In this document: positions 12,639 to 62,963 of the stretch, piece by piece
Layout: each line of letters starts with the position of its first letter
Numbering within the stretch: position 1 is the first letter of the stretch
Origin: Rhizaria sp. SCN 62-66
Taxonomy: Eukaryota
Reading direction: 5' to 3'
Assembly: GCA_001724265.1 (NCBI GenBank)
Contig: MEDY01000284.1
Coordinates: forward strand, 1-64,000
DNA: 64,000 nt
Notes under the pieces: model-generated
What the model was told of the DNA's origin: nothing
Seen by the model: the letters and a program-made list of their open reading frames with translations, nothing else
Databases searched by the model: none
Translations under genes and position numbers: made by a program

Positions 12639-13325
12639 ATGGACTCGTTGCTGAACCCGCCCCTCTCGTCTTCGCCCGGCGACCTCACCGACGGCGGCGA
12701 TGATTTCCGTTCCTCTGAGATCTCTCCCCTGCGTGCGCGCCGCGTGGCGTACGCGGCGCCCGAGCCCGGCGCGTCTAAGCTCAAGACCTACGAGTCGAAG
12801 CTGGCGCAGGGCGAGAAGCTGGACAACCACGAGCAGGAGGAGCTGCTTTCCGACCTTAAGACGCAGGCCGACTTCATGAACCGCGTGTGGCGCATTGTTA
12901 TTGTTGCCTTTGGCGCCATCTTCGGCACTATCACGCTTGCGTTGCTCGTCGTGCGGCTCTGGCGCGGCGGCGGTGTGGTGTACCTGCACCGCAATCTCGA
13001 GCCCGCGCTCGGCGCGTTTCTCCTTACCTTTCTCCAGCTCGCCGCCGTCCTCTCCTTCGCTCTCACGGCGCGCGCCGCGCTCGCGCTTCCGGCGCTGCCC
13101 AGCGAGGAGCAGATGCTCGCCTCGGGCTCCGCCGCCGCCGTGTCGGCCGCGCTGTTCATCTTCTGTCTCGCGCTGAAAGGTCTGCTGTCGCTGCCCAACG
13201 CGTGGCTGCCGCTGTGCGTCGCCGCGCAGTGGGGCAGTCTCTTCTACGCGCGCAACGCCGCGGTCGGGTTTGAGGGCGATATGCGCGACCTCGCGAAGGT
13301 CCGCTACCGCCACGAGTCACTCTAA
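12639..13325 (+). CDS. Multi-pass membrane protein of unknown function (228 aa)
   Basis: ATG at 12639, coding-like GC3 bias, about 4 hydrophobic segments, stop TAA. Motifs KLDNHEQEELLSDLKTQ and DLAKVRY. Confidence 0.75.
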   Translation: MDSLLNPPLSSSPGDLTDGGDDFRSSEISPLRARRVAYAAPEPGASKLKTYESKLAQGEKLDNHEQEELLSDLKTQADFMNRVWRIVIVAFGAIFGTITLALLVVRLWRGGGVVYLHRNLEPALGAFLLTFLQLAAVLSFALTARAALALPALPSEEQMLASGSAAAVSAALFIFCLALKGLLSLPNAWLPLCVAAQWGSLFYARNAAVGFEGDMRDLAKVRYRHESL

Positions 13326-13889: not shown

Positions 13890-14009
13890 TTAATTGGTGT
13901 TATCTTTGCCCTTCGCGTTGCTGTTGCTCTTGCCATTGCCGCTGCCGTCGCCAAACCATTTGGCCTGGCCCTTGCTGCGCCACAGCGACTTCGCGTTCTT
14001 ATTGCCGCC

Positions 14010-14055
<46 letters not shown>

Positions 14056-17000: not shown

Positions 17001-20000
17001 CACTGCAACCGACACCGCCGCGCCGCTGCTACTGCTACTGCTACTCGTGTTGCTGTTGCTGTTGCTGTTGCTGTTGCAGCAGCCGGGTGCGGAGAAGACG
17101 AGCTCATCATCGAGCACGCCCAGCAGCGAGGCCGCCACGGTCGACGCTGGCACGGTGCTGGTGGCGAGCGCGGCGGGCGAGTCGCCCAGCGCTGGCGCCA
17201 GCGCCGCGGCCGCCGACGCGTTGGCGACTGCGCGCTGCGCCGACACCGCAAGCGCGGCGGGCACGACCGGCGCCGCCGCGGCCGTGGCTTCAAGCGCCGA
17301 GACAAGCGCGACGGAGAACAGCGGGGAGCGCGCGCGCGGCAGCGCCAGGGTCGTCACAAGCTGCGCAGTGGCAGAGACTGAACCTGCGTTCGCGCCCGCG
17401 TCAGCGTCTGCGTCTGAAGAGACGGTTGACGACGTCGTGGAGTCTGCAGGCGCAGACGCTGTCGCCGCGAGCATAAGCGCCTCCGAGAGCGCGCCGCACG
17501 CGCCGTCGACGCCGCGCGTGGCAAAGATCTCGCCCGTGTAATGGTTCCCTTTAGCGGCGTTGGCGGCGGCAGTGGAAGTGGCTCCGGCGGCGGCGACGGC
17601 CGAGGCCGAGCGCGCGGGCAACGCTGCGTACGCCGTGGCAGGGACGTCGATCGCGCTGATGGCGCACCGCATCAGCGCCAGCGCCGAGCGCGCGGTCAGC
17701 GGCACGCACACGTAGGGCGCCAGCGCGGGTGCCAGCGCAGTCGCGGCGCCGTCAGCGGCCGCGGCGCCCTCGCCAGCCGTCGCGGCGGTCGCGGCCGCGG
17801 TCAGGGCCGCGGAGGGGCGCAGGTGCGGCGGCAGGTATGGGCTGTTAGCGGGCAGCCAGATGGCGGGCGGCGCGGGCGCGACGGTTTTGTGCATCAGCGG
17901 CGAGAGCAGACGCAGCGCGGACCGCGGCTGCAGCGGCCGCAGTGGCGGCGGCACCGTCGCTGGGTAGCTCATCACCACGGGCGCCGCGCCGGAGTCAGCA
18001 GCGCTGGACTCCGCAGACACTGGCGCAGTGGACGCGGATGAGGAGCCGAGGGCCGAGGCGAGAGCGGGGTTCCCGGCGGGCGTGAGGCAGCGCTCCACGG
18101 GCCACGGCCACTGCTGCGCACCCTGTGACTGCGATTGCAATGTGTAGCTGCAGACGCCGTCGTCGTTGTTGTCAAGGTTTTCGGCGAAGAAGTCGATGCC
18201 GGAGCTGGGGTGCTCGACGATGGCCACGCCGCCAGGACCCACGCGCGCCAGCGACGGCACAGTCGGAATCACCGGCGGCCGCGTCGACGCCGCCGCCGCA
18301 GACTGCGCTTGCGACGCGACACCGGCAGCCTTCTCGCTGCTCGCGTCGCCGCTGGCGATGTTAGCGCCGCCGCTGCGGGCGCGGAGACGTGCGCGGGCGC
18401 GCGCGCGGGCGGCCGCGGCTGCGGTGTCGTCCGCGGCCGCGGCGTGTGCACCAAGGATCTTGAGCAGGAGCCCGCGGCCGGTGAGCCCCATCTGCTGTGC
18501 ACGCTGCTGCCAGTGCCAGCGCGCGCGCACGGAGCGGAACTGGCGCGACTGCCCAGCCTCGCCCAGCTGCACCAGCACGGGCTTCCCGCGCGCGTCACTG
18601 CTGCCGCTGTTGTTGTTGTTGTCAGCGGTGCTGTTGTTGTCGGTGACGAGGACGACGCGGAAGCACGCGGTGAGGAGCGCGGCGCGGTGCTGCTGCGAGA
18701 GCGCCAGCGCGGGCGACAGCAGCACGTCCAGCGCCATCTGCACCGGGTGCGCCGCGCTCACCGACACAGCGGACACGGACACTGGCGCTGCGGATACCTG
18801 CCCGGATGAACCGACGGCACCGGCACCGACACCGGTGCCAGAGACGGGGTCGGCAGTGGAGACACTGCGGCGCGAGCCAGTGCCAGCGGCGTCAGCGCCG
18901 CCGCGTGCAGCAGCCTCTGAAGCGGCGACGGCGAAGCTAGCGGCGGCGGGGTCTGCGCCGAGCGGGGCGGCGACGGCCAGCGTCTGCGGCTGCAGCGGCA
19001 CGATGGTGTGCTCGCCGCGCGTCAGACAGCCCTCGTCGGGCAGCGCGGCGGCCGCGGCGTAGGGTGGCGCGATGGCGCTCGCCTCGGCCGCGGACAGCGG
19101 ACGCAGGATCTCGACCGGCTCGCGTGCCCACTCGGCCACCAGTGCTTCGTACTCCGCGGTCGCCTCCGCCGCAGCCGCGGCTGCAGCCGCAGCTGCCGAG
19201 GACTCTGCAGCCGACTCCGCAGCAACAGTCTCCGCGGACGCGGTGGCGGCGGCAGCGGTGTCCGCGCTCGCGCCAGCGCCCGGTGGGCCAGCAGCAGCAC
19301 CAGCAGCAGTCTCAGTCTCCGGCGCCGGCGCTAGAGATGGCGCTGGCGCAGGCGTGAGCGCGGTGACTGCGACCCACTCGTTGCCGGAGCCCCCGACGGG
19401 GCGCGGCGGCCGACGCTCGCCCGCCGCGGCCGCGTGTGACGCCGCGGCGGCCGCGGCGGCGGCGACCGACGCCGGCGCAGCGACCGCAGCGGCCGCGGCG
19501 GCGGCAGCGGTGCGCGCGCCGAGCGTGGGGAGCTCGTAGGCAAGCAGCGCGCCGGGCACGAGTGCGGCGATGGCCTCGGCGGCGAGCGCGGCGGCCGCGC
19601 GCGGGCGCTCAAGGCGGTCAAAGGACGTGATGAGCGCGAGCTGGGAGCGCAGTGGCAGCGAGCGGAAGGCGGCAGGGAGCACCGTCGCGACGACGGTTGA
19701 CGCGGGAGCGCTTGAGACGGGGGGGCGGTTACGGTTACTGCGACTGCTGCCGCTGCTGCTGCTGTTGTTAGCGCTTGTGCGGGCGCGACTGTTACCGCAG
19801 TCGTTGCCGTCCTTGTTATTGGCATCGTTGCTGTTGTTGCCGTCGTCGTTGTTGTGGCCGTTGTCGGTGCTGCCGGCATCCGCGGAGCTGGGAGTCTGGC
19901 CCAGACTGTCGCTGCCGCCGTTGCTGGCGGCCGAGATGGGGACGAAAAGCCCGCTCGACTGCAGCGGCGACTCGAGCACCACGGCGCACAGCGGCGCAGA

Positions 20001-23000
20001 CGGCCGGTGCCACGCAGGGTTCCCAACCAGCACAGTCTTCTCGCTCTCCGCAATCTCAGTCACAGTCTCCATCTTAGCGTCAGCGTCAGCGTCAGCGTCA
20101 TCAGCTGAGGCTGCTGCACGGGCTGATGCGGCGCGGCGGGCCAGCAGCGGCGCGGGCGCCCAGGGCCGAGCGTAGAGCGGCCGCAGCACGGTCGCGGCGA
20201 CGTCGCTGGCGTGAGCGTGCAGCATCGGATGCGCGAGCGCGGCCGCGAGCGCGCTCTTGCTCAGGTGCGCGTTGAGCTCCGTGATCGCGCTCGCGAGGGC
20301 AGCCTCGCGCTCCGCGGCCGTCGTCGCGGCGTCCGACTGCAGGGACGGCAGGGGCGCGAGCGAGATGTGTGTGGCGATGATGGCGTCGGCGGTGGTGACG
20401 GGCACCGCGCACGCGCCGCCGCCGAGGCCCGCACCCTGCGACGCGCCCACAAACACCACGTTCGCGCTCTCAGTCGCAGCGCTACCGACGCCACGGCTGT
20501 CACCGTCAATGTCGTTGTTAGTGCTGGTGCTGGTGTTGCGGGGAATGGGGATGGACCAGCGCGAGCGCAGGCGGAGCTCATCCGCGTCCACCGCCGCCGC
20601 CGCGCGCGCCGCGCTGCCGCCGCCGTTGCCGACCGCCTCCGCGAGCGACATGACGCTGTCCACCACCGCAGCCTGCGCCGCCGCTGCCGCGGCCGCGGTG
20701 CGCGAGCGCGCCGCGCCCGCAGCCTTGCTCCCGCGGCCGCCGCGGCCAGTCAGCCCGTGGCCGTATTTGGAGCCGTGTTTGCGGCCGAGCTGCGCCATGG
20801 CATCCAGCACCTGGCCGCGCACCGCGCGCTCGCTCGCAGCGCCGCCGCCGCCAGCCGCCTCCGTCGCCCCGTCCGCCTCCGCCTCTGCCGTTGCAGCGGC
20901 CGCGGCCGCGGCTGCTGTGGCGTCGGCAAGGGCTTCGTCGCGGAACACGACCTCGAACTGCGCAGTGTTTGACCCTGCCGCACGCAGCGCGGCGACGGTC
21001 GCGGCCGCGTCGTCGGCCTCCCCGCACTGGCCGTAGGCGCTGGCGAGCGAGGTGAGCGTGACGTGCGAAGCCCGCACGCCCGCGGCGGCCATGTTGGCGG
21101 CCACGAGCGAGATCACGTCCGCGCCTGCGCCACAGCGCGCGAGCCCCGTGAGGAGCAGGTTGTACGTCACGGCGTCGGGCGCGGCGCCACTCTGCACCAT
21201 CGAGTCGGTAAACGCCACTGCGCGGTCCGCGCGACCGGCCTTAAGGTAGCCGTTAATGACAAGGTTCCACGTCTGCGTGTCCGGCAGCAACCCTGCGCGC
21301 GGGAAGAGCGCACAGTGCGCGTCGAGCGCGGCCCAGTCGCCCTGCGCCGAGGCGAGCGTGATGAGCGCGTTGACCATGAGCGTGTCTGGCACAAGCCCCG
21401 CGGAGAGGCTCACGGCCACGGGCGACAGCAGCCGCTGCAGTGCGTGGCCGCCGACGCGGAACGCCAGCGACGCCGCGGGTGCCGCGGCCGCCGCCACGGC
21501 GGCGGACTTCACGGCAGCGAGATTACTGCCGGCGGCGGCATGGGGGCTGTGGGGCGAGTTGTTCGTCAGAGCCTCGGCCTCGGCGGCCTCAACCTCGGCC
21601 ACGGCGGCCGCCACGGCGGCCACGGTCCACTTGCCCGCGCCCTTGCCGGCGATCACGCTCACGCTCTCCCCAGCGCTGGTGCCGGCCACAGCGACGCCAG
21701 CGGCCGCGACCGGAGAGGCTGCGGCGTCCGCGGCGGCCATCCCGCCCGCGATGGCGCCCGTGACAGTGTCCGCGAGCGCGCGCGCGTCAGAGTTGACGGC
21801 GTCCACAAGTGACTCGAGCGCACCGGCACGCGGACCCGCAGGCTGCGGCTGGCCCGCAGGCTGCGGCTGCGCGGGGGACTGCGCTTGACCGGGAGTCTGC
21901 TGCTGCTGCACGTGTTGCTGCTGCAGGTGGTGCAGCTGCGGTTGCTGCTGATGCTCGCTCTTGCTCTTGTGTTGTCCGAGCGTGCCCGAGGAGGCGAAAG
22001 TGCCGAAACTGAGTGCATCGAGGTCAAAGTCGTTGTTGCTCGAGTAGTCGGCCTCGTCAAGCCCGCGCGCGAGCAGCTCCAGCACAGACTCAGCCGTCAG
22101 CGCGCCCGTCTGCATGCCAGCGCCAGCGCCAGCGCGCGAGGGTTGATCAAGGCCGAAACCGAAGCCCGAGCCCGCGGCCCCAGGCAGCGCACGATCGGGG
22201 TCAGCGCGCGCCTTGGCCTGATCATAGGCCTGCGTGACGGCCACGGACGCCGCGCTGGCGGCCGCGGCGGCCTCGGCGTTGGACGCAGGCGCGGAGTCGA
22301 ACTCCCTGTTGAGCTGCGAGTGCAGCGCCTTAACCCCGGCCTCGGCCAGCTGCGGCAGCGCAGTGTGAGAGAAAGCAGAAGACGCGGAGGAGGATGAGGA
22401 GTCCTGGCGCAGCGCGTGGGCCGCGGCGGTCTGCACGTGGAGCTGCGCGTGCGCGTGTTCCTGCGCCGTGAGCACGAGCTTGCGCAGTTTGCGCGCGCGC
22501 GTGTTGTGCATCATCGCGCGTAAGTTGGGCCGCGCCGCGTTAAGCAGCGCGTCTGCGATGCGCGCGCCCGCGACCAGCGCCGGCCCGCCCGCGGCCGCGC
22601 ATCCAAAGATGAGGAGCGTGTAGAGCGCAGGCGAGGGCTGCCGCACGTGGCGCGTGTACATAGGAAGCAGCGCGATCGCGTCACCCAGCGCGCCCGAGTC
22701 GATGAGGCCGCGCCCCAGAGTCGTGAAAGTGTGCTCCGAGGGGCGCAACACTGGGCCGGAGCCAGACTTCCTCTCAGCTGGAAAGCGTTTGTCGCTGTCG
22801 TCGGGCACAGTGGCGAGCATGCGCTGGAACACCGCACGCGCACGCGTCATGTCCCCTTCGGCGACAAAGCTGGCCAGCAACACGTTCGTGGTCTGCGTTG
22901 TCGGCTGCACGCCCGCGGCCGTCATGCGCGCCAACGTCGCGCGGGCGCCCGCGGGATCCCCACGCGTCACGCACGCGTGCGCGAGGATGGCGTACGACGC

Positions 23001-23838
23001 GGCAGAGAGCGCGACGCCAGTGTCCGCGGCGACCCCCGTGGCCCCCGCCCCCGTAGTATGAAGCGCAACGGCGTCGCGGAAGGCGTCGAAGCGCTCCCAC
23101 TCGCGCTCAGCGGCGAGTCCCGAGAGGACGGTGTTGACGGTGACGGCGTCTGGCGCGGCGCCCTGCGCGGCCATCTGCTCCAGCGCGGCGGGCACGGCGT
23201 CGAAGAGGCGCCGCGAGACGAGCGCGCGCAGGTGCAGGTTGAACGCGAAGGGCGAGGGCCGGTAGCCGCGGAGGACGAGCTGGTGCAGCAGTGTGGCCGA
23301 GGTCGCGACGTCACCGCGCATGGCGGCCTCCTCGAGTTCGCGCAGGAACGCCGAGTCAACAGGCGCCGGCAGCGGCACGCCGGGCCCGCCGCCCGCCGCG
23401 GCGGCGGCGCCCGCGGCGTCGGAGCTGTCACCGCTGCCGCTGCCGCTGCCGCTGCCGCTGCTGTTGCCGTTAGTCAGGGGCCGCTTGCGCCGGTTCGTGG
23501 TCGCGCCCTGCTGCGACCTCGACTGAGACCGCTTCGCTGCATCAGCGTGGGGATCGGTGTCGGTGGCGCCGGCGCCGGCGCCGTCGGTGGCGGCGGCGGC
23601 GGCGGCAACGGCCGCAATGGCCGAGGTAGTCGCTGCGTCTGGCCGCAGCCGGCGCTGCATCTGCCGGCGCTCGTCGAAGCTCTGCTCGATGCGGCGGCGC
23701 GACATCGACGACGCGTGCAGGCGCGCTGTGTCCGAGGCAAACCCGCGCCGCGGCGCCGCCGTCAGCACGGCGCCCACGCTGCTGGCGCTAGGACGAGTGT
23801 GAGAGAGTGTGTGACTGCTGCTGGCGCTGCTGCTGCTG

Positions 23839-23869
<31 letters not shown>

Positions 23870-24152
23870 TGTATTGGTGATGTGTCGCGCGACTGCTGGT
23901 GCTGAGGGTGAGTGGAGGGTTCTGGGAGAGAGAAGAGCTGGCGGGCGCGGGGGCCGGCAACGCGAAGTCGACGGAAGAAAAAGCAGCAACAGCAGGCGCG
24001 GGCAGCGACGGGGCAGCAGCTGCAGATGTGGCGGAGACGGCCGCGGCGGTTGCAGAGCCTGAGACTGAAGCTGAGGCCGCTGCAGCAGAGTGCTGGGCCG
24101 CTGCGGACGCAGTCGATGCCGCGATGGCCGAAAGCCGGGCGCGGAACAACAT
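13890..24152 (-). CDS. Giant pentatricopeptide-repeat (PPR) protein, probably mitochondrial, ~3420 aa, containing one in-frame TAG (14387-14385)
   Basis: Two PPR clusters: PSPFAFNLHLRAL, PDAVTVNTVLSGL, PTTQTTNVLLASF, PSEHTFTTL, PSPALYTLLI; and PDTLMVNALIT, PDTQTWNLVINGYLKAG, PDAVTYNLLLTGL. MLFRARLSAIAAS resembles a transit peptide. The frame stays open past the TAG to TAA at 13892-13890. Confidence 0.8.
14011..14078. repeat. Compound (CTG)n(TTG)n microsatellite encoding poly-Asn then poly-Ser on the minus strand
   Basis: ctgctgctg...tgttgttgttg is directly visible. It lies in the PPR segment downstream of the in-frame TAG. Confidence 0.9.
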
Positions 24153-36966: not shown

Positions 36967-39900
36967 TTACATCCAGCTAAGCGCCGTTGCCAGCAATGAC
37001 ACGACAGTCTCTCGCTCCCGCACCCGACGGTTCCGCCTCCGCGCTCCGTCACAAATCGCCTCAACATCAGCGACGTCAGTTGCTGCTGCAGCAGGAGTGA
37101 CATTTTCAGTAGCTGAAGCGGCAGCGAGACAGACCTGAGCCACGCACAGCGATCGCTTGAGCTCTTCCCGTGTCCGCACCAGCAGCAGCGTCCACGCCTT
37201 GTCATCAGTCTCTGCGTGCGTCACTGCAGCCGGCGCGCGTAGCTGCTGTCGCGGCTTCTGCAGCAGCGCGTGGCGGAGCGCACATACGAGTAGCGCGACC
37301 GCGGTGGAACTGCCGTGCGCTGCTGCGAGCCATAGCGCACTGCCCGCCAGCGGGGGCGGGCGCCGCAGCAGCAGCGCTTCTGCGTGCCGCGCCACAAACG
37401 CAGAGTCAACAATAGAGGCCGCAGCGCTGCCGCGCGCAGGAGTGAGTGTGAGCACTGTGGTGGCCGTTGCGCCCGGAACAACAGAGCACGGGCGCAGTAG
37501 TAGCTGCACGGTTTCCGTTGCAGTTGCGGCAGCGGCTAACGATGCTGCAGCAGTTGCGTCAGGGCTGCTGCTGTGGGCGCTGCGATCAACGCACGCAACC
37601 ACTTTATCGACCCAACGCGTCACTGCAGCAACAGAGTCAGCAGTAGCGATTGCCTCAGCGCTCGCTCTGGCGACTGCGGTGGCAAGCGCACCCGAGAGCC
37701 CTGTAAGTACAGCAAGCGTCGCAAGCGCCCGCCGAGCCGCATGATCACGGCGCGAACGCCGAGACTGGGACTTCGAATGAGGCTGTGACCGTGCAGCAAG
37801 CGTGTGCTCGCGCACGGTGAGATAAGATAGCTTCGCGAATAATGCCTCAGTAAGTGTGGCACGCAGCGGCGCGGCCCAGGGTAAAGTCTCCGCGGCAGGG
37901 ACAGCGGCAGACAGCGCGGCCTCTTCCAAGAGCTCACTGTCATCCAAGTCACTGTCGCTGCCGTTGTCATTCGCGGCTGCTGGACGTTCATCGCTGTCGC
38001 TGTCACTACAGGTGCCACAGGGATGACCGCAGCTGTCGTCCCGATCACAGTCGCTGTGGCAGGCGTACCAGTTGTCGTTGTCCTCATCATCAGCCTGCTG
38101 CTCATGATCCACGTCGCCGTCCCCGTCCCACAGTCCTGCGCCGCCCAACGGGCTCTGGTGTTGCTGCTTGTGGAAGTCGTTGTCAGCGTCGTGCGCAGCA
38201 GTGTAGTCGTGCCACAGAGTCACACCACGCGCCCCCCTTAAACTCGCACTCGCAGTCGTTTGATGCGGAGTCGAAGTGTTTAAATGACCCCAATCGTTCT
38301 CCTGCGCAGCCCCGAGACGTTCTGCGCGGCCAGTCACCGCGGCCTCGTACGCGCTCACTGGCACCAAGTCCCCGCGCAGCGCAAGCCCAAACAAATCGCC
38401 AGCAAGCGCGTGCACGGCCGCCGTGCGCGCCTCGTCCGCCGCGGCCGCGGCCGCCACAGCACCCGCGGGCACGGACACCACTCGGCTGCTGTGACCGCGG
38501 ACGGCGCTGTCTACAGCTGCGACTGCGGGGACGAGCAGGGGCCAGACAAGCGACGCGGCGGCGCGCGCGGCGGCCGCGGCGGCAAGCGCGGCGGCAGCCT
38601 CGATTAGCGCCAAGAGTGCAGGTTTAAGCGGGGACGCAGACAGTGCGCGCGGCGCCAGCAGAGCCAGCGGCGTCAACGGCGGCGCAGGGACTGATGACTG
38701 CGCGATAGACGAGGCCAAGATAGATGCTGAGGCAAGAGCGCTGTGCATCGCAACACGGTGGATAAACGATTGCGATTGCGGCTGTAAGTGTGATTTTGTA
38801 GGCGCGAAACTGTGCACATTGACACGCGCAGTGTTTGTGGGCAGAAGAAAACTCACAGACGCGTCGACAACGCCTGCTAACACCGCAGCCACGGGGTCTG
38901 TCGCAGCTACCGACTGCCCACGGTCACTGCGGCAACGTTGCTCACAGTCACTGAGCGCTGCGACAAGCGGTGCAAGCGCGAGTAGCAGCGGCGTGCGCTG
39001 CGGCGGCAGCGGCACACTCACAGTTTCTTCAAGACCTACACTGGAGCTGGTTTTAGCGCTATCACTGCGAGTAAACGCGGTTCCCGCTGCGGTTGCGGGG
39101 GCCGGGGTGAGGAAGGCGCTGGCCCGCGCCACAGCCTTGGCCGGCAGCAGCGCCGCCGCGGTAGCCTCGGCCACTGACGACGGCACGCGCGCACCCTCAG
39201 CGGTGAAGGGAGAAAGAGGCAACAAGTGCGTGGCAAGCAGCGCAGCGCCAAGTCCCACCGCAGCCTCTTCAGCCTCGTCATCAAAGCTGTCACTCTCGCC
39301 GTCGCCGTCACGGCCGCTGCAGACGGCAGCAAGCGCGGCGGTCGTTGTGAGCGCCACGCGCGCGCCAGTGAGCAAAAGCGCGCACTGCGCGCGGTTGCAG
39401 AGCACGCGGCCGAGCAGCGCACACAGCGAGGCCGCTTCAGCAACGTCACCCGCCAGGCCAACACACGCAGATGATGCAGCATCGCTCAGATCGCTCTTTG
39501 GAGCAGCGCCGTTCTACGTCGCGTCTTCAGGACTCAACCAAGAGCGCATAGAGCGGCGAGTGACAGAGCGCAGGCGCGCTGCAACACGTGCGGCGGCTGC
39601 GGCATACGCGGCGCCCGCGCGCGCGTACTGGCGCTGCGCAAAGAGCTCGCCAGCACTGCCGACGCCAGTCAAACGCGCCTCTGTCGTTTTCACGAACGCT
39701 GTGGGCGGCTCACTCTCGTCGTCGTTGTCACCGTGCTCAGGCGTAGGAGTCGCGGGAGCAACTGCAAGTGCAACAGCAAGCGCGAGAGCGGACAAAACAT
39801 GCGGCGAAGTGTGCACTGTGGCCGCTGAAGCAACGCCCCAGCGAGCAAGTTCGCTTTCAAGAGTTGCCAGCACCGCGGTTTCTGCCGCTGATAAGGTTGC

Positions 39901-42387
39901 TGTTGTTGTAGAAGCGCACAGGAGCAGAGAAACACAGAGTGCCGCATTGCAGGCACTGATTAGCGAGGACAGGAGCGCAGTGTAGGTCAAGTGACTGGAA
40001 ACCGCCGCAACATTGACGGAGGCAGGACCAGTCGCAGCTGCTGTGGCAACTGCTGCAGCGCGGAGCGAAGCAAGAGCGTCAGCCGCAACACGCGCGTTGG
40101 CCACAGCGACGGCCACAGCGGCGCTCAGTGCGGCTGTAGTTTCATCGCGGGGGCGCAGTGCTGGCGCAAGCAGCGTTGCAAGTGTTAACGAGTTGCTCTT
40201 TGCGGCCGCCAGCAGCGCCAGCGCGCGCCACTCACCCTCAGCGGCTGCACCGGCCGCGGTAGTGGTGGCACTCGCTGTCGCTGTGGCTGTATTGACTGTA
40301 TAAGCAACAGGCGGGCCCGCCACGGAGACCACCGCGGCGGCTGCAATTGTGGCGGCGAGCGAAGGGCTGTACGCACTCAGTGGAGCGCTGCCACTCGCCG
40401 CAGCCGACGGGCCCGCAGTGAGCGCAGCCGTGGGGAAGAGCGGCACGGCGCGCAGTAACCGAGCGAAAGACGCGCCTGCGCGCACAGTCCCGCCCACGGC
40501 CTCTGCGGGGGCGAGAGTGGTGCCGCGCACGGTCACCCCAACAGTCGCTTCAAGCGCGGACGCAGCTGCCGCAGTTGCAGACGCAGCAGCGTTGGCGCCA
40601 GTGAGCTTGTTGTCCGCGTTGCCATTGGAGTTTGCGGCGGCGACTGCAGCTGCAATCAGCAGTGCTGTCTCAAAGCTGCCTGTGCCCGCGGGCGCCAATG
40701 CTGTCGCGCAGTGCGTGGCGTAATGTGTCACAGGAGTGGAGTGCGTGATTGAGTGCGTGGGCGCGGATTGCAGACAGAGAGCGAGCGGAGTCGCCACAGG
40801 TGCAGCAAACAGGCGCCGCAGATGTCCTGCAGTGCAGCGTATACAGGGGCAGCGGCAAGCGCCATCGCGCGCGCATGCCTTGCTCTTGCCCTTGTCCTTG
40901 CCTTCGCGAACAGTTGTGCTCGCGCCCAAGCACTCGCTTGTACAGTCACTTTCATACTCGCACTCTTCACACTTCTTCTTGTGTTCGAGGCCACCGTGCG
41001 TATCACTGGCTTCATCACGCCGCACGGTCACGCAAGCACTCGCATTGTCAGTGACCGTGGCCATGGCCCGTGCCCAGCGTCGCAGCGCTGTACGGTGCGC
41101 GCCGCTCGGCGGCCGCGGGTCAGCACGCGCCCGTGCTGGGTCAAGCGAAGTCACCGCAAGCGCGAGCCGCGCCGCGGTGCCCGCGCCGCCGGGCCCGCCC
41201 GCGCCAGCCCACGCCGCGGCCGCGGCCAGCGCGGCCGCCGCCGCGGCCGCCAAGGCCGGGCCCGCAGCCGCGCGCTGGCTCGCGGCGGNNNNNNNNNNNN
41301 NNNNNNNNNNNNGGCTCGCGGCGGCCGCCGTGGTGGACGCAGCGGAGGAGGATGAGGAGGACTGCAGCAGCAGCGCGAGCAGCAGCGGCGGCAGCAGCGG
41401 GGTCGACCGCGCAAGAGCCGACGCAGCCAGCGCCGCCTCGGGCGCGGGACCCTGCTGCCCGTCCACCGCGGCCATCGCAGCGCTCCCGGCTCCGGCTCTG
41501 GCTGCTGCTGCGGTTGCAGCAGGAAGGTACGGCGCGAGCGCGTGTGGGGCCGCGGCAGCGAGCAGCAGCGCGGCGGCGGGCCGCGGAGACGGGTGCGCCG
41601 TCAGCGCCGCGGCCAAAAGCGGGACCAACAACGCGTCGCGCGGCGCACCAGAAGGCAGTAACACCTCCACAAGCGTCTGCGGCGACACCGCAACAGGAGC
41701 AGTTGCATTCGCAGTAGCAGCAACAGTTGATGAGGGGGCGTAAACTGAAGGTGCGGGCGGTGGTGGTGCGGCGGCAGCAAACTCGGCCTGCGCGCGGACG
41801 CGGGCGCGTGTGTATGCGGCAAGAGCACGTGCGAGCACCGGTACTGACACTGGCACTGGCACTGACGCTGACGCAGGCGCTGGCACTGACGCTGGCGCTG
41901 GTGTTGGCGCTGACGCAGGCGTCGGCGCTGAGACTGGCGCTGAGTCCGCGCTTACAAGACCAGCAGCAGTACTGTTCGCAGTTCCACTAACAGTGGCGCT
42001 CGCAGTAGCGCTGGGGCAAAAAAGCGCAGCGAGCGATCGTAGGGTAGACTCAGTGAAGCGTGAGAGTCGGCAGTCGCCACCGCCGAACCCATAGCCCTCA
42101 CAGTCTGAAGAGCCGGCGTTGTTGTTCTGCGCGGCAACAAACGCAGCAAGCGCGGCGCTGTCGCCACGACCCGACATCGAGCCTGTATTGGCATAAGAGA
42201 CGGCATTGCCCGTGGTGGCGTCAAGGTCCGCTTCAGTCGCAGGCTCAAGGCTGGAATTTGACGAGAGTGGGGGCAGCGGCGGCATTGTGTCGGGCACGGC
42301 AGCCTCGATGCGGCGGCGCAGCTCCGCGGGGTCACCCCAGCGGCCAGCGTCGGCCAGCGACTTGAACACTTCGAACGGGGTCGACAT
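36967..42387 (-). CDS. Large Ala-rich hypothetical protein (~1800 aa) containing one in-frame TAG (39516-39514) and an assembly gap
   Basis: The ORFs 39514..42414 and 36967..39405 are in the same frame, separated only by a TAG and 36 open codons. ATG at 42387 (MSTPFEVF), stop TAA. No family recognised. Confidence 0.65.
41289..41312. other. Assembly gap (24 N), probably a 12-bp overlap
   Basis: ggctcgcggcgg occurs immediately on both sides of the Ns. Confidence 0.85.
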
Positions 42388-43322: not shown

Positions 43323-44390
43323 TTAGGTGGAAAAACGCTCACGCTCACCGATTTTGAACGCTTTGGTCGCGGAGGCGGTCTTGGAACCGGCAGTCTTGGC
43401 ACCGGCGGTCTTGGAACCGGCAGTCTTGGCACCGGCAGTCTTGGCACGGGCAGTCTTGGTGGCAGACTTGGACGACGCGACCTTGGTGATGGGATTGCCG
43501 GACATCGAGGAGTCGATGACGGCCGTCTTAGGGATGGTGGCCTTGGCGACGAACTTGACCTTGGGCTCGGGAGTCGCGGCGTTGATCTCAGAGATGGCGC
43601 CGTCGGGGCCGTTGCACTGGCAGCGGCGCTTCTGGGCCTCGAGGAACGGCTTGCTACCGCCGAGGTTGACGGCCTGGTACATGGCAGTGGGAACAGCGCG
43701 GTAGATGATGGCCTCATTGGCGACGGCCGCCTCGAGGCACGTCTTGAACGTCGTGTCGATGTTGTGCTTGGACGCACCGCACGTGTCGTAGCCGATGTCG
43801 TGCGCGTTGCAGCAGCTGGTGATGCTCTTGGGGAGGTGCGTCAGCAGATGGTGGATCGTCTTGCCGGTGACCTCGGAGCCGCAGCCGTCGAAGAACGCCT
43901 GGGTGCCGGGCACGGTACCCATGGTGTAGCCAGCGGGGCACGTAGAAAGGTCGGGAATGCTCTCGACGTCGGCCTCAGCATCAGCGTCGGCATCAGCGTC
44001 AACATCGGCGTCAGCCTCAGTCTCAGCGTCAACATCAGCGTCAGCGTCAGCGTCAACATCAGCGTCAGCGTCAGCGTCAACATCAGCGTCAAGCTCAGCC
44101 TCGTTCTCAGCCTCAGCGTCAGCCTCAGCGTCAGCTTCGGCCTCGAGCTCAGCCTCGAGCTCAGCCTCGGCGTCAGCGTCAGCATCAACCCCGGCGTCAG
44201 CCTCAGCCTCAGCATCCACCTCGACCTCAGCATCGACCTCAGCCTCAGCGTCCATCTCGAGGAAGGCAGCGTCGTCGACCGAGAGCTGAGAGAACTCAGC
44301 AGTGGCCAGGTCGACCGCAGTAGCGGGGGAGACCATGACAACAGCCATCGAAAGGGCAAACGCGGCCGCCAGAAAATAGGCAAAACGCAT
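43323..44390 (-). CDS. Secreted group XII-like phospholipase A2 with an acidic N-terminal repeat region and a basic repeat tail
   Basis: Signal peptide [25 protein letters not shown], then a (DA/EA)n tract. The domain reads DGCGS...[23 protein letters not shown]...[20 protein letters not shown], like PLA2G12. KTAG(A/S) tail, stop TAA. Confidence 0.8.
43376..43460. repeat. 15-bp tandem repeats encoding KTAG(A/S)
   Basis: gtcttgg(a/c)accggc(a/g) units are repeated about 5 times. Confidence 0.8.
43975..44255. repeat. 6-bp-unit (tcagcg/tcagcc) coding repeats encoding DA/EA dipeptides
   Basis: Directly visible within the PLA2 gene. Confidence 0.8.
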
Positions 44391-45157: not shown

Positions 45158-46124
45158 ATGAGGATGATGCTCATGGTGTTGATGGCCCTCATTGCCATCG
45201 CTTGTACGTCCACACTTTCTCTATCTTGCTCTATGCCGCTCGAAAGTTCAACGAGCTCCACTCGACTTGCTTCCCCCCTTTTTTCCCCTACACCTGTGCT
45301 GTCCCTATTCCTCTTTCCCCTTGCTCTTGACTCACATTACCTGATACTTAACATTTCACCCTTCCCTCTTCACATCTCTGCGTGTAGTTGCGGCTGCTGC
45401 TGAGCCCGCGGCGAACCTCCAGAAGGTTCCTGTCGTGCCTGCTCCTGCGCCCATCGTCAAAGACGGCGTTAAGCTGTTCCACGCGACCGTGGTTGACCCC
45501 AACTTCCCTTCCCCCATCGTCAACGCCGATGGCTCCATCTCAGGTGTCCCCGTCGTGCCTGCACGGGCGATCCGCTCTGACGGCTACATGCACCTTCCCC
45601 CCGTGCCCGTGGTCGCACCCAAGTACCACCGCCGCGCTCTCCGCCGCGTCGCCAAGTCCCTCGACCTGCTCGACAACGCCTACGACGCCCTCACCACTCA
45701 CCTGCGCGACCTCACTGTGATGCGCGCCAAGGTCCAGCGCAAGCTCGCGATGCTGCAGGCCGAGCACGTCCGCCACGGCGCCATCGTGCTCCCCGCGCTG
45801 CCCGTTAACACATCGCTCGCAACTCCCGTGGTGCCCCTCGGCGTCAAGCGCATGCTCCGCAGCTACCTCATGTCCGCTGTCGAGACCGGCGCCGCCGCCG
45901 AGGGCCAGGCTGAGGCTGAGGCTCAGCACGCCTCGCTTATCGAGACCGAGGTCGATGCTGAGGCCGAGGTTGACGCTGAGGCTGAGGTTGATGCCGAGGC
46001 TGAGGTCAATGCTGAGACTGAGGTTGATGCTGAGGCTGAGGTCGATGTTGAGGCTGAGGCTGAGGTTGATGCCGAGGCTGAGTACGAGGCTGAGTACGAG
46101 GCTGAGGCTGAGGAGGAGATGTAA
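45158..46124 (+). CDS. Secreted protein with a coiled coil and a C-terminal (DAEAEV)n acidic repeat; exons 45158-45203 and 45388-46124
   Basis: The signal peptide MRMMLMVLMALIAIA|FAAAA is split by a GTACGT...TAG intron (45204-45387) in matching phase. Stop TAA. Confidence 0.75.
45204..45387 (+). other. Spliceosomal intron (GTACGT...TAG)
   Basis: Pyrimidine-rich; removal restores the signal peptide and the frame. Confidence 0.8.
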
Positions 46125-55072: not shown

Positions 55073-56566
55073 ATGTCGACGTATGGCCCCCGAGACGTAC
55101 AGGCGGCCGTGATGGAGCTGCGCGCACACCCCAAACCGCGTCCACAGACCTTCACCAATACTTATGAGGAGACTGTCACCGCACACCCCACGCTCGCCGC
55201 GACGCTTTTCTCTGCCGACGAGGCCCGTTCCCTGCTTGCAACGCAAAAGTCAGCGTACGTTCCCCCGAGCTCTCTGTTAGTACTTGCTTTCTCGCTCTTC
55301 ACTGCCATTGACGCAAGAAAACTCACAATTCGCGACTTAATTGCCTTCATTTTCTTCTGCCACAACAGTACTCTGCGGTCAAAACCGCTTCAGTTTTCCG
55401 GCTCGGCATCGCTGACTGGCACTGCCGGCTCGCTGCCACCGATGTCTCACACGGGCGCCGACCTCAGCGACCTCGCCGACTTGTCGCGCGCGTCGCCACA
55501 CTCTGCGGATGCGCGTCGGCGGCACGCGGCGTACCGCGAGGCGTCGCAGCAGCGCGTGCACGACATCCAGGTGCAGATCAAGGCCGCCGAGGCCGCGGCG
55601 ACGCAGCGCGAGGACGCCGCTCTCTCTCGCGCGCTTGACGCACTGCACGGCTAGCGCGCCTTTGTCTCGGGCGTCGGCGTGTACCTCGCGCAGCACGACG
55701 AAGCGCTGGCGCGGCGCCGCGAGACGCTGCACAAGGACTGGTCGCGCACCGTGTTCGACGAATTGCAGCAGCAGGTGCAGCGCGGGCTCGACGCGCGCAG
55801 CACGGCCGCCATCGAGCGCCGCCGCCGTGACGCGCTGCAGCACTACCTGGACGCGAGCAACCGCAAGGCGCACGTTGGCGGCGTCGTGCTGGACGACGAG
55901 GAGCGGCTCGGCGTCGACGCCCCCGCCGCGCGCGCGCACGCGGCCGCCATCAAGGTCGACGTGTCGCGGCTGCAAGACCCCACGCAGCGCGGGCTCGACG
56001 CCATCCGCCGCGAGGAGCGCCTGCTGCGCTCATTCAACTCCGCTGCGACCGGTGGCGGTGAGCTGAGCGACGCCGCAGCGGCGGGCGCAGCCGTGGGCGG
56101 GATCGACGCGTTAGCACCGCGGTCGATGCTGCCGGTGACGGCGTGGGCGCAGGTGCGGCAGACTCAGGGCCGCTACGCAGAGCAGGCCGACGCGGCCGAG
56201 CTCGCGCGCCAGGACCCGCGGTGGGGCGCCGGCGCGGGCCCGCGGCCGCTGCGGCTGCGCGCGACGGGGCAGGCGCACCCGGCGACGTTCGCGTCCTCGG
56301 TGGCGATGGATCACTTTACGCCCGCGGCCGAGCTCGCGGTCTCGGACCCCCAGGTGCAGCGCGCCACGCGCGCGCGCGAGCTGGCGCTGGCACGGAGGGC
56401 CGCGCGCAAGGCCGCGCTGGGCCCTGGCGCCGCGGGCGCGGAGGACGAGGGCGACACGGCTGCCGTCGTCGACCACTCGGCCGCCTACGCCAACAACGAA
56501 GGCCGCGGACGCGGCGGCCGCGTCGGCGCGGGCACTGGCGGCGTGTCTTCGATCACCACCCTGTGA
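55073..56566 (+). CDS. FAM228-like protein; exons 55073-55254 and 55369-56566; contains one in-frame TAG (55652-55654)
   Basis: ATG at 55073 and a GTACGT...CAG intron at 55255-55368. The frame continues LHG*RAFVSGVGVYLAQHDEALARRRETLHKDWSRTVFDELQQQV, which resembles the FAM228 conserved region from memory. Stop TGA. Confidence 0.6.
55255..55368 (+). other. Spliceosomal intron (GTACGT...CAG), 114 nt, no in-frame stop
   Basis: AT/pyrimidine-rich island with the consensus donor and acceptor. Confidence 0.7.
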
Positions 56567-56885
56567 GACTGCTGTTGCGCTCTTGTTATGTCGATGTGGT
56601 TCCCGACGTTGCAGTCTTTTGTCCAGCCGAATCGGTCAGTTCAAGCTTCACTTGTGTTGGGGATACGATTGCATTTTTCCTTTTTCCGTTCGTAGTTTCA
56701 TTCTGTATTAGTGTTGTTGTTTTGTTCACAACACAACTTTCAATATTCGTCTAGATAGCATTTTTCGTCTTAACCATTGTTTGGGCCAGTCTCATCCCAA
56801 GATTATTCGTGTTACACGATGCTCATACATAAAATACATTCATCATAACCACAACATTGATGAATTTCCGTTGCTTGGAGCAATT

Positions 56886-58174
56886 TCACCACCAGGAAGA
56901 AAACCAGCCCTTGTCGGACGCTGTTGCATTCTGTGCTTGCTGCTGCAGCTGCTGCAGCGCGGAGGCCTCACGCTGCGTCCTGAGCGCGCGCGCGCGGCGG
57001 GCGAGCTCACGCAGCTCCTCAGCGGGCACCACGGTGCCACCGGGCCCGCGCAGCCGGCCGTTGACGTCGTAGGCGTAGCCCGGCGGCAGCAGCGCCAGTG
57101 GGAGGCACTTGCGCACAGCACCGACAGGAGCGCTTGTACTCGCACTCGCAGCGGGGGCGGCAGCGGACTTGACGGGACCTGCGTTGGCAGCGTTGGAGAC
57201 AACATTGACATTTGCGTTGATGTTGGCAGTGGTGCGGACGGGTTGCAGCGGCGTCATTGCGGGGCCGCGCGGGGCCTTGCTGCGGCTAGTTCCCGCGCCA
57301 CGCGGTGTCGCAGGCGCCACCGCAGCAGCAACATGAGCAACAACAGCAGCGGCAACATGGGCACTGCGAGGCGGTGTGCTGAGCTGCTGCTGCTGCTGTT
57401 GCTGGTGCTGCTGCAGGCGACCATGGGTGTTGGCCGTGCCAGTCGCAGTTGCAGTGGCCGCTGAGGGCAGATGAGTGGCCCCACGGCGCAGCGCGGGCGT
57501 GCCAAGCGTGCGCGGCGTGCGCGCAGGCGTCTTTTTGCTGCCGCTATTGCACGCGCCAATAGCAGCACCACTGAGGCCCTTCATCGGCGTCTTGTGCGGC
57601 GTGCGCAGCGGGGTTGATGCACCCACACTCACAGAGCCACTGTTAGAGTGCGCGTTCGCAGAAGCGTTAGGAGCGGAGTCAGCGGCCTTGGGCACGAGCA
57701 GCAGGCCGCACGGCGAGCGCTGCAGTGCGCGGCCGTCCTAAGTCGTGACATAAGCGGCGCGCGGCGGCGTCGCCAGGCACTCGCGCTTGCCGGGGGTCTG
57801 CTGGCCGTTTCTCTCGTTGCAGCCGCTCTCGCTGCCGCTGTTATGGGTCTTGCTCACTTTCCTGGCGCCACCAGGCGTGGCCATAGCGCCGTTGTTGTTG
57901 TTGGGGCGGCCACCGGCGGCAGCGATGGCCTTGAGTGCGGCGGCGTGCGCGTCGCGACGGCGCGCGGCGTCTTCGCGCTCCTTGCGGAAGGCCAGAAATC
58001 GCTCTGCGGCCGCAAATTGCGCCACGAACTCGGCGAACACGGCGAAGAACTGCGGCCACGACAGCACCGCGGGCGCGCCCAGCGACGCGGCGGCCGAGGC
58101 GGAGAGGCAGCCTGCGCGCGCAGGCAGCACGGGCACAGCCGCCCACGCGGCCGCCAGTCCGCTCCCAGCGCCCG

Positions 58175-58205
<31 letters not shown>

Positions 58206-61200
58206 GTGGAAGCGCGCAACGGCGTCCGCGGCGGTGGCGGCGTCGGGGACAACCGATGCAGCGACGCCGAAGAAGGCCATCGCGTCGGCGGCGACGGCGA
58301 CGGCGGCGTGGAGCTGCGCGGCCGTCTCGTGGTACAGCGCCGCAGTGACCGCGGCGCGCGCGTGCAGCTGCAGCAGCGCGCGCTCGCCCGCGGCGTCGGC
58401 GGGCGCGCGGCGGAGCACCGTGGCCGCGGTGCGCAACACGGCCTCGATCTGCGCGAGTTCGGAGAAAATGGGCTCGCAGTCGGCCTTGGCGGCGTCGGCG
58501 AGCGCGGCCGTGTCGTGGATGAAGGCCACGCACTCTGGCCGGTTCTGGTGCAGAAACGTGACCAGGTAGTGCAGCAGGGTCGTGCCGCCGCCGGAGATGC
58601 CGCCAGCGGAGCGGGTGTCGCCTGTACGGACACGCGTGATACATGAGTAAGAAAGCAAGATGAGCAATAAAAAACAAAAGTTTTCGAAAAATATTAGAAT
58701 TTCATCGCAACAAAGTTAAAATGCGTCATATGAGTTCAATCTGCGCTGAGTATAGGAGATTTGTCGTACCGAGCTTCGTGAGGGTGGAGATGTGGAACGC
58801 CACGGCGGCGGGCTGGTCAGCGTTCATAAAATTGCCAAAGCGCAGAATGACGTGCAGAATGGTCCGCAGGTGCTGCGACGTCACCAGCGCCTCGCACGCG
58901 CGCACCGCGGCCGCCACGCGCGCCTGCATGCCGCGCAGCGCCGTCTCGGCGGCCTCGGCGTGCAGCGCGGTGGCGAGCTGCAGCCGCGTCTTGAGCAGCG
59001 GCGCGGCGCCCACCAGCGCGAAGACTTCCTCGGCAAAACCCAGCACGTGCGAGCGCGTGGCTGCCACCGCCTCGCGCCGCGCGGCCAGTCCGGCAGCCTC
59101 GCCTGCGGCCGCTGCATCGTCATCGCTAGGCAGCAGCCGCAGCAAGCGCTCGCGCATGCGCGCGCAGTCGGCCTCGGTGCGCCTGGCTAGCGTCGCAATG
59201 GCCTCGATCTCGTCCTGCGAGGGCGCGTGGCGGGCCAGACACTCCAGCGCGGCGTAGGGCAGCGCCGCGGCATCGGCGGCGGCGACCGCGGCGGCGAGCG
59301 CGGGCAGCGGCAGGCGCGCGGCGCGGAGCACGATCTCGAGCTGTCGAGCGCGGTCCGCGGCCAGCGCGGTCGCGGTCACGCGGGCAGACGGCGCGCGCGC
59401 GGCGGCCAGCGCGGCGTCGAACGCAGCGAACACGGCCGGGCCTTGACTGGCCGCGCCGTCACTGTTGTTGTTGCCGCTGCTAGAGCTCTTGTTGTGAGAG
59501 GATTTGATGGGCATGGCGGAAAATGTGCGCGCAAACTCGGCCTCATCAAACGGCAGCGCGGCGGCCTCCGAGCCGGACCAAATGGAGCGCCCCGCGCCAC
59601 GTGCGCGCGCCGTGGCCGTCACAGGTGACTGGGAGCGCGAGCGCGAGCGCGCGTTGAGCGCTGCGTGCTCGGCGTCGAGCCGCTGCCAGTGCAAGCGCTT
59701 CACACGGGGGCCTGTGCGCGCGGCGGCGGCGACGAGCACGGGCTTGGCTGCCGCCTTGCCACAGTCGCCGTCGTTGCCATCTTCGTCGTCGAAGAGACCG
59801 GGCGGCGCGGGCGGCGGCGCGGCCGTATTGCCCGACAGGAAATCGCCGAAAAGGTCTTCCGGCGGGGGCGGGGGCGCGCTGCCACAGCCGCTATCGCGCT
59901 CTCCCCTGCTAGGAGCGAGGTCGTCAAGCAGGCCAGCTGGCGCGGGCGGCGGCGGCGGCGGAGCGGTCGCAGCCAGCTCAGGGGCGGCGTTGCTCGCCAC
60001 AGCGACTGCGCTGTTTACGGCTGAGACAGTGGCAAGCTGGCTCTTGGCGGCCGCAAGCATCGCTGCGACGGCGTCAGATGCTGCGCTGTCGACAGGGCTC
60101 ACGCTTGAAGTCACACTGGCATTCGCGTTAACAGCGTCATCGTTGCTGGCGGCCGCAGCGTCAAAGAGCAGACTGAGCGGGTCCGTGACGTCCGACGCGG
60201 CGGCTTGACTTTGATCCCCCCGCGTCGGGCCCTTGCTGAGCACTGCGTCGGTCAGAACGGCATCAGTGAGCGCGGCGTCGTTGAGCGCAGCGGCGACGGC
60301 GCGCGCGACGGAACTGGCCACGCGTGCGGCGGCGCCCGGCGCAGCCACGGCCCCGGGGGCAACGCCGCGCACGCGCACAACAAATGTGCCCGCGTCGGCC
60401 CCAGTCTCGGCCAGCACGGCCGCCGCAGCGGCCTCAGCCTCGGCGTCAGCCTCGTCGGTGCCAGTCAAGTTGAAGCCGCGCACTGCAGTGGCCGCAGCGG
60501 GGAGCGAGACGTCAACCACTGCACCGGCTCTAGCCACGGGACCAGTACCGCTGACTGCCACGTGCTTGCGGCTGTGATCGCGGTCGCGGGGGCGATACGG
60601 TGTGGCGGGGCGGCCACGACCGCGCCTGTTCCCTGCCACAGCCCCGGACGCGGTGGAGGGCTCGGTGACGGTGTTGCGGCCGCGGGGCGGTGTGGCGGCG
60701 CCCTCGCAGTCGGCGGCGTCGGAGCCGGGCGAGCAGTTGTGTTGTGCTGCGCGCGCGCTGTGGTGGTGGCTGTTACCACGAGCGAACCCTTGGCCATTGT
60801 GAGCCTGACCGTGAGCGTGAGCGTGACCGTTAGTGTTGATGTGGTTGTGGCCGTTGCTGTCGTTCTGAGTGAGAGTGCGCGCAGCGGCCCCGCGCGGAGG
60901 CGGCGTGCGCATGTGATTCGCGCCCGCGGAGGCCGCCGCCATTACCGCAGAGGCCGCGCTCGCAGCGCTTGTCAGTGTAGAGTGTGACGAGTGTGCAGCG
61001 CCAGCGACGGGGCCAGCGACGGGGCCCGCTGCTGTGGCGCCGCGGCAAGAGCGCGGGGCAGTGCGGGGCTGCTGTGGTGCGGGGGAGCCAAGCGCAGTGG
61101 GGGGCACGTGCGCGGGGCGGCGAGCGGCACCGTTGCGGCCAGCTGTAGCGCTGTTGGGGTTGTTGCGACGCGCGTGGGCATCGGCTCGGTACTGCGCCTC

Positions 61201-62023: not shown

Positions 62024-62963
62024 ATGTCCAACATGATCGACGACGAGGACTACGCCGGCTCTTACGAGCACGGCCAGGACCTGAACGCGGCCTACGCCGA
62101 GGGCGGCGAGTCGCTCGCGTCGCAGGAGTACGGCGGCATGCACGACAACGACGCCACGGCCTCGGATGTCACTTTTGCGCCCCTGGGCGCGGCCGAGATG
62201 GACAAGGGCGTGGTTCACAACCTGCGCGTGCCGGTTCCGCTGCACCGCTTGACGCCGCTGCGCGACGCGTGGATGGACATCTACACGCCCATCGCGCAGC
62301 ACATGAAGCTGCAGATCCGCTTCGACACTGCAAAACGCTTCATCGAGCTGCAGACGTGCGAGGAGACCGAGTCGCCTCACGCCATCACCAAGGCCGCCGA
62401 CTTCTGCCGCGCCTTCGTGCTGGGCTTTGAGCTGCGTGACGCCATCGCGCTGCTGCGTCTGGACGACCTCTACATCGACACGTTCCACATCAAGGAAGTG
62501 CGCCAGGTGTCGACCGACGAGGAAGTGTCGCGCTCCATCGGCCGTATCGCCGGCCACAACGGCAAGACCAAATTCACCATCGAGAACGCCACCAAGACGC
62601 GTATCGTGCTTAATGAGGGCCAGATCAACATCCTCGGGTACGTTAATATCCCATCTTACAGTCTCTTATTATAGTCTCAGTGCAAACAACAACGAGCTTC
62701 ATCAGTACAAAGCAAATCTAAGTCACTTGATCACACAGCCTCCTATATCTCGCATTCTCATGCATCTTAGCTCACATTCAATCGCTCTGTTCCATTCTGT
62801 CTCGATCGTGTTTTGTATTCTTTTGACCATCATACTTCACAGTTCGTACAAGAACATCCGGTACGCCAAGGACGCCGTGGTGGCCCTTATCATTGGCTCG
62901 CCCCCCGGCAAGATCTTCACCCGCATGCGCAACGTCTCCACATACACCAAGCAGCGCTTCTAA
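62024..62963 (+). CDS. PNO1: Pre-rRNA processing KH-domain protein PNO1/Dim2; exons 62024-62637 and 62843-62963
   Basis: VPVPLHRLTPLRDAWMDIYTPI, KAADFCRAFVLGF..DAIALLRLDDLY, SRSIGRIAGHNGKTKFTIENATKTRIVL...ILG|SYKNI...GSPPGK. Intron GTACGT...CAG, stop TAA. Confidence 0.95.
62638..62842 (+). other. Spliceosomal intron (GTACGT...CAG) in PNO1
   Basis: Removal restores the conserved ILG-S(Y/F).NI C-terminus. Confidence 0.92.

Follow-up and report, generated by a model that had tools for sequence, protein, structure and literature searches.

A single in-frame TAG in a FAM228-like gene is probably a sense codon, most likely for glutamate, in an uncultured eukaryote

Results

In the 64,000-nucleotide stretch of DNA analysed here (referred to as the window), a FAM228-like gene contains a genuine in-frame TAG codon through which coding continues. 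The same holds for one TAG in each of three other genes, and no gene of the window ends in TAG. We consider it likely that the organism's nuclear code uses TAG as a sense codon, most probably for glutamate, and retains TAA and TGA as stops. From this pattern we infer the identity of the residue (for which one site is informative), a decoding tRNA, a change in eRF1 and a rule that applies genome-wide.

The window and its FAM228-like gene

The window is eukaryotic nuclear DNA, with a GC content of 65-78% in coding regions and 38-53% in spacers. Genes recognised in it comprise cyclin, formin (FH2), Ank/FYVE/synaptobrevin, TB2/DP1, PLA2G12-like, PNO1 and PPR genes. Positions 1-9048 (+ strand) belong to a gene whose 5' end lies beyond the window and whose coiled-coil product exceeds 3000 residues, with an extremely high content of Ala and Glu; a weak C-terminal match to the GRIP domain, below the Pfam cut-off, suggests that this protein may be golgin-like. 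Long repeats of the acidic D/E-A-E-V type are found in the PLA2G12-like protein (43323-44390, - strand) and in a small gene at 45588-46124 (+ strand). The FAM228-like gene is organised as follows.

Positions 55073-55254, + strand: exon 1, with the start ATG and the motif YGPRD..AA..E..HPKPRP, which aligns with the N-termini of proteins P0005, P0006 and P0007.
Positions 55255-55368, + strand: intron of 114 nt (GTACGT...ACAG, GC 0.46), predicted from alignment gaps and splice motifs.
Positions 55369-56566, + strand: exon 2, with the FAM228 domain (PF28229 on P0002 and on P0003, the latter at 46% identity) and the terminal TGA at 56564-56566.
Positions 55652-55654, + strand: in-frame TAG, at column 33 of the family profile, where 63 of 121 homologues have Glu.

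When translated, 55255-55368 faces nothing but gaps in all homologues (alignment with the six closest relatives), and as its length is divisible by three the raw frame stays open across it. The first 60 codons from the ATG at 55073 carry an N-terminal motif common to P0005-P0007, 130-190 codons upstream of the TAG. A word-index search found two proteins. One of them, P0002, is the database call on the same contig (295 residues) and has a GTG start just past TAG 55652. The other, P0003 (338 residues), is 46% identical to the window protein over 339 residues, and the two align without gaps through the TAG, from 28 residues upstream of it to the C-terminus. Both have precomputed matches to PF28229.1, a family which the ESM Atlas names FAM228, and FAM228 clusters are the top three Atlas matches for P0003 (scores 0.92-0.93). 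A local Pfam scan, run with a copy that lacks the PF28229 model, returned no family; membership is taken from the precomputed matches and the Atlas, which justify the FAM228-like label of the original prediction.

A profile search, built from the window protein and P0003 and run against 1.84 billion representatives, retrieved 202 proteins at E<=1e-3, 24 of which reached E<=1e-10. The core block ETLHKDW / VFDxxQ is aligned in 121 homologues (from the best 150 of the 202), and conservation of the C-terminal part is limited to close relatives (alignment of six relatives). On our best reading, the spliced transcript would be translated into a single full-length FAM228-like axonemal protein of about 459 residues. 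In mouse, FAM228B is associated with C2 microtubules in the axonemal central apparatus of the sperm flagellum, and Chlamydomonas has a FAM228B homologue (PMC12297659, in part). The window gene with the TAG resembles FAM228B in its FAM228 domain (PF28229) and in the 202 homologues recovered by the profile search. It differs in that the C2 location is known for the mouse protein, whereas a role in this organism would follow from family membership only. As a carrier of a FAM228 family gene, the organism presumably builds a 9+2 flagellum.

The TAG codon is genuine and lies in continuous coding sequence

The in-frame TAG occupies 55652-55654 on the + strand, and we reproduced from the sequence both its position and the surrounding peptide as originally reported (LDALHG, the TAG, then RAFVSGVGVYLAQHDEALARRRETLHKDW). 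The ATG at 55073, the TAG and the terminal TGA at 56564-56566 are all in one frame. From the TAG to the start of the ETLHKDW motif at 55721, no frame contains an ATG, so that the predicted lack of a restart codon ahead of the core holds, and the next in-frame ATG (56126) is located 158 codons downstream. Beyond the TAG the frame is open for 303 codons, with GC3 values of 0.89-0.95. The GC content around the TAG is exon-like (0.71-0.74, versus 0.46 for the intron at 55255-55368), and inspection of the local sequence revealed no GTACG donor nearby.

Stopping at the TAG would lose the domain, as was initially argued: the FAM228 core lies downstream, and homologues align through the codon. The original prediction went astray in placing the conserved region downstream only, as about 30 residues immediately upstream of the TAG and the N-terminal motif of exon 1 are conserved as well. 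This overlooked upstream conservation makes the case for translation of the TAG stronger. Two objections had been foreseen. With conserved sequence on both sides of the TAG, independent translation of the downstream part is very unlikely. A sequencing error is contradicted by the presence of the same TAG in an independent contig (X3 record 2, 55303-55887), which comes from a study other than that of the possible source sample of the window and matches the window with no differences and no gaps across the codon. The base at 55652 is thus not an assembly error.

The TAG column is mainly occupied by glutamate

The best 150 of the 202 hits were realigned to the profile. Homologues were included at the TAG column if they had at least five residues in the eight columns on each side, and hits falling short of the column were excluded, which left 121. 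Among these 121 homologues (from the best 150 of 202), the residue is E in 63, G in 15, N in 14, D in 6, R in 4, K, S and Q in 3 each, A and T in 2 each, and V, I, H, L and P in 1 each, with one gap. The best 24 hits show E in 16 cases, Q in none and L in none, and all six closest relatives have E. In a weighted profile from which the window's own proteins were left out, emission values at this column are 0.34 for E, 0.061 for K, 0.056 for S, 0.042 for Q and 0.020 for L. Aligned with FAM228 homologues, the readthrough translation thus meets a column that is mainly Glu (63 of 121), and the suggestion, made in the original prediction, that a Glu-like residue stands here and speaks against Leu proved correct (L in 1 of 121, and E in the six closest relatives).

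The column therefore favours Glu over Gln by about 8-fold to 20-fold at TAG 55652, and it argues against Leu. Given that TAG is a sense codon, and allowing for Gln as the usual outcome, the chance that it would stand for Glu is about two in three. Caution is warranted here, as the identity of the residue is read from one moderately conserved column, the other three TAG sites being located in non-conserved low-complexity sequence. Indeed, no homologues were found for the 450 residues around the TAG at 39516, and a search with the formin tail recovered only the window's own protein.

Three other genes carry one in-frame TAG each

Besides the FAM228-like gene, in-frame TAG codons (referred to by their first base) were identified in the following genes, all of them on the - strand.

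Positions 14385-14387, - strand: in-frame TAG in the PPR-repeat protein gene (3420 residues, 13890-24152), followed by 165 more codons with GC3 values of 0.86-0.88 and then by TAA.
Positions 39514-39516, - strand: in-frame TAG in an ORF of 1806 codons whose family was not recognised (36967-42387), with 849 open codons beyond.
Positions 57738-57740, - strand: in-frame TAG in the C-terminal tail of the formin, with 284 open codons beyond; crossed by RNA and DNA contigs.
Positions 56886-60942, - strand: formin (FH2) gene, with exons 60942-58770 and 58621-56886 and the intron 58622-58769; ends in TGA.

The FH2 domain lies in exon 1 of the formin gene, and ORF 56886-58280 is the 3' part of the same gene: a database protein which carries FH2, P0154, runs into this ORF. 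P0154 passes through the 3' part of the formin intron and ends at TAG 57740. A GC-rich island at 58281-58681, missing from the first ORF list, corresponds to formin exon 2, and another one at 60943-61143 may belong to the formin gene too, as an additional 5' exon or an N-terminal extension. The database gene calls of the contig are wrong, and look like the output of a prokaryote-type caller. As standard gene callers split TAG-containing genes (P0002 and P0154 being examples), metagenomic annotation of this lineage is expected to be systematically wrong. The ORF at 36967-42387 contains a run of 24 N (41289-41312), which is an assembly gap.

With two small genes added to the list (12639-13325 and 45588-46124), the window has 16 genes, of which 10 end in TAA, six in TGA and none in TAG. 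Exactly one in-frame TAG is present in each of four of these 16 genes (at 14387, 39516, 55652 and 57740), whereas neither TAA nor TGA occurs in frame within the 16,236 codons counted in the window genes. TAA is the most common terminal stop (10 of 16, with TGA accounting for the other six) despite the 65-78% GC content of the coding DNA. The lack of TAG among the 16 terminal stops proves little: if the standard code applied, four of the 16 genes would simply end at these TAGs, so that this is not independent evidence, and the sample is this window only.

What decides is the continuing coding signal after the TAGs, as opposed to the drop in GC content after TAA and TGA. In the 150 nt past each of the four TAGs, the GC content is 0.65-0.72 and 50 codons contain no in-frame stop. 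Past the 16 TAA and TGA stops, the next 150 nt have a GC content of 0.34-0.50, and one to five in-frame stops per 50 codons are found (14 of the 16 measured). The frame remains open for 165, 849, 303 and 284 codons beyond the TAGs at 14387, 39516, 55652 and 57740, respectively, and codon-position GC after the TAGs is coding-like in most segments, most clearly at 14387 and 55652.

The TAG sites are also unlike the three recognisable introns, which are AT-richer and have GTACG donors. In addition to the one in the FAM228-like gene, these are the PNO1 intron (62638-62842, + strand; 205 nt, AT-richer, GTACGT...CACAG) and the formin intron (58622-58769, - strand; 148 nt, GTACGA...TACAG). A TAG at 62672, considered as a fifth sense site, was rejected as it lies inside the PNO1 intron; similarly, a TGA at 58728 was rejected as a terminal stop, as it is located inside the formin intron.

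RNA and independent assemblies

One polyA-RNA contig (X5 record 24, 57533-57811) runs through the TAG at 57740 with no differences and no gap, the X5 evidence consisting of contigs of low depth and not of raw reads. Three further contigs show this TAG unchanged: X3 record 3, X4 record 16 and L001, a JGI contig of the same organism that agrees with the window at 100% identity over 55926-58033 and does not extend to 55652. In exon 2 of the FAM228-like gene, polyA-RNA contigs cover 55674-55942 and 56204-56421; among the X5 contigs listed none lies over TAG 55652 (gap at 55602-55673, the nearest contig starting at 55674). A contig from another run, X9 record 25 (55524-55684), spans this TAG but was not counted, as it has 30 letters past the codon (the rule being 31) and the run is probably DNA. 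The spacer at 56538-56771 shows no depth in X5, in contrast to the flanking genic parts, which fits RNA rather than contaminating DNA.

The window is present in part in 13 listed runs from seven studies, from bioreactor, wastewater and activated-sludge metagenomes, and four of these 13 runs hold at least half of its sampled words. The same sequence occurs in assemblies from several studies dated 2015-2025. Contigs of many other organisms pile up on a CAG/CTG (poly-Gln) repeat at 57383-57414 in all four runs (depth 227-2276 at this place), and this repeat creates spurious joints in contig mapping.

A first metagenome scan (profile A1) gave 168 pattern matches and no relatives. A second one (A2) gave at least 599 pattern matches, and two loci were found among the matches listed: the JGI contig mentioned above and L002, which occupies positions 1-21320 of a 313,956-base contig. 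L002 is a distant relative (29% identity, GC 0.52) with the FAM228 homologue P0007. Its eight ORFs have TAA (seven) or TGA (one) as last stops; the TGA-ending ORF has a TAG seven codons earlier, and one of the TAA-ending ORFs has two TAGs near its 5' end. Repeats similar to the acidic D/E-A-E-V type of the window are found at 14885-17977 of L002, near the FAM228 homologue.

Discussion

Proposed decoding of TAG

Under the preferred reading, the ribosome would read TAG 55652 as an amino acid and thereby produce a single full-length FAM228-like protein. The decoder would be a cytoplasmic tRNA with the anticodon CUA, most simply derived from tRNA-Glu(CUC) by one anticodon change, and recognition of UAG by eRF1 would have become inefficient. 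As UAG is the only codon with which a CUA anticodon pairs, TAA would remain a stop; the same argument, that UAG is read and UAA is not, has been made for other UAG-only codes (PMC5304391 and PMC11687900, each in part). No tRNA genes were found in the 64-kb window, and eRF1 is absent among the genes identified in it.

TAG is used four times in 16,236 codons, i.e. about 0.25 per 1000, and if it stands for Glu it makes up about 0.4% of the Glu codons (GAG 788, GAA 109). It is thus far rarer than in described reassigned codes, which is the main caution against our reading. Such rarity would also be compatible with a recently captured or weakly decoded codon, and suggests that TAG is a young or weakly used sense codon here. 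With only 16 genes in the window, TAG could conceivably serve as both stop and sense codon.

Alternative explanations

A sense TAG need not be Glu, and a genome-wide reading as Gln, or as some other residue, is an unlikely alternative. Reassigned UAG usually stands for Gln in eukaryotes (PMC11687900 and PMC5304391, each in part), CAG is abundant in the window (503 codons) and is converted to TAG by a single transition, and the column is not invariant, as 58 of the 121 homologues (from the best 150 of 202) have something other than E. Yet Gln is rare at this column: it occurs in 3 of 121, in none of the best 24 and in none of the six closest, and its profile emission is 0.042, versus 0.34 for E. 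We judge it improbable that TAG is a normal stop which four genes overcome by programmed readthrough that is efficient and gene-specific, extended isoforms being made with near-cognate tRNAs. Readthrough extensions are known in eukaryotes, and such a mechanism would sit well with one TAG per gene and with the great rarity of the codon (4 in 16,236). However, the TAG of the FAM228-like gene is in the middle of the domain and not ahead of an optional extension, so that a protein terminated there would lack the family domain. The codons following the four TAGs (CCC, AAC, CGC and GAC) offer no common context, and folding of the 120 nt from each TAG (z scores of +1.39, -1.76, +1.01 and -0.35) reveals no shared structure, both of which fit site-specific programmed readthrough poorly. 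Moreover, none of the 16 genes ends in TAG, and dependence of four genes out of 16 on readthrough would be extraordinary.

The TAGs might instead be nonsense mutations, the genes being pseudogenes or truncated, or their downstream parts being translated separately. Judging from the codon counts, such decay would favour TAG over TAA, since G/C-ending codons dominate and single-base changes to a stop should give TAG more often than TAA. Nevertheless, four of the 16 genes would have to be broken, each by one TAG and with neither a frameshift nor any other stop, whereas codon-position GC bias persists for hundreds of codons past each TAG, no in-frame ATG occurs for 158 codons past 55652, polyA-RNA contigs lie downstream of two of the TAGs, and the same sequence recurs in assemblies of several studies over 2015-2025; we regard this scenario as very improbable. 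Still less credence can be given to removal or alteration of the TAG in RNA, through a small intron or RNA editing, or to a sequencing error. The FAM228-like gene does have an intron, at 55255-55368, with a length divisible by three, and a TAG trinucleotide could in principle act as a splice acceptor, but homologues show exactly one residue at the TAG column with no gap nearby, the local GC content is 0.71-0.74 as against 0.46 for the intron, and there is no GTACG donor near. Furthermore, the polyA-RNA contig over TAG 57740 has neither a gap nor an altered letter, and independent DNA contigs agree with the window.

Comparison with known reassigned codes

Several codes are known in which UAG alone is reassigned and UAA is kept. 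UAG is read as Leu in the rhizarian exLh and as Gln in Iotanema spirale (PMC5304391, in part), and as Leu or Gln in phyllopharyngean ciliates, in which UAA is the preferred stop (PMC11687900, in part). The window resembles these codes in that only UAG is found within genes, UAA predominates among the stops (10 of 16 here), and the expected decoder is a tRNA with a CUA anticodon, which would not read UAA. It differs from them in its residue, which is probably Glu rather than Leu or Gln, in the 65-78% GC content of its coding DNA and in the frequent use of UGA as a stop (6 of 16). In our judgement, it is also not ciliate-like by composition and gene layout, in contrast to the ciliate members of this group. 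Finally, TAG is used at about 0.25 per 1000 codons here, whereas 384 in-frame UAG were counted in 71 genes of exLh (PMC5304391, in part).

Other codes share the probable residue. In the ciliate Oligohymenophorea sp. PL0344, UAG stands for Glu and UAA for Lys, with suppressor tRNAs complementary to the reassigned codons (PMC10553269, in part). As far as that source goes, the likeness lies in UAG being Glu and having a meaning distinct from that of UAA; the difference is that UAA is reassigned there and only UGA terminates, while TAA is the most common stop in the window. Peritrich ciliates read UAR as Glu (PMC11687900, in part), as does Blastocrithidia nonstop, in which UGA is Trp (PMC12153298, in part). 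These share with the window the capture of an amber-type stop by Glu, but, in the parts of these sources available, UAA and UAG change jointly, whereas only UAG is found within genes here.

Few codes give UAG a meaning different from that of UAA (PMC11687900, in part). In the literature covered, which leaves out most subscription journals, UAG-only reassignment was found as Leu or Gln only, and UAG as Glu only alongside a reassigned UAA; no instance was found of UAG as Glu in a code that retains UAA and UGA, nor of any from a non-ciliate rich in GC. We give roughly even chances to the proposal that the window represents an undescribed code, with UAG as Glu and both UAA and UGA kept, in a GC-rich, apparently non-ciliate, uncultured flagellate of wastewater and bioreactors, at an early stage of reassignment. 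Codes that split UAG from UAA are informative about the way in which a stop codon is taken over while its wobble partner is not. A GC-rich, TAA-preferring genome with few UAG codons would be an added case, and one that allows testing whether reassignment begins with a codon that is hardly used.
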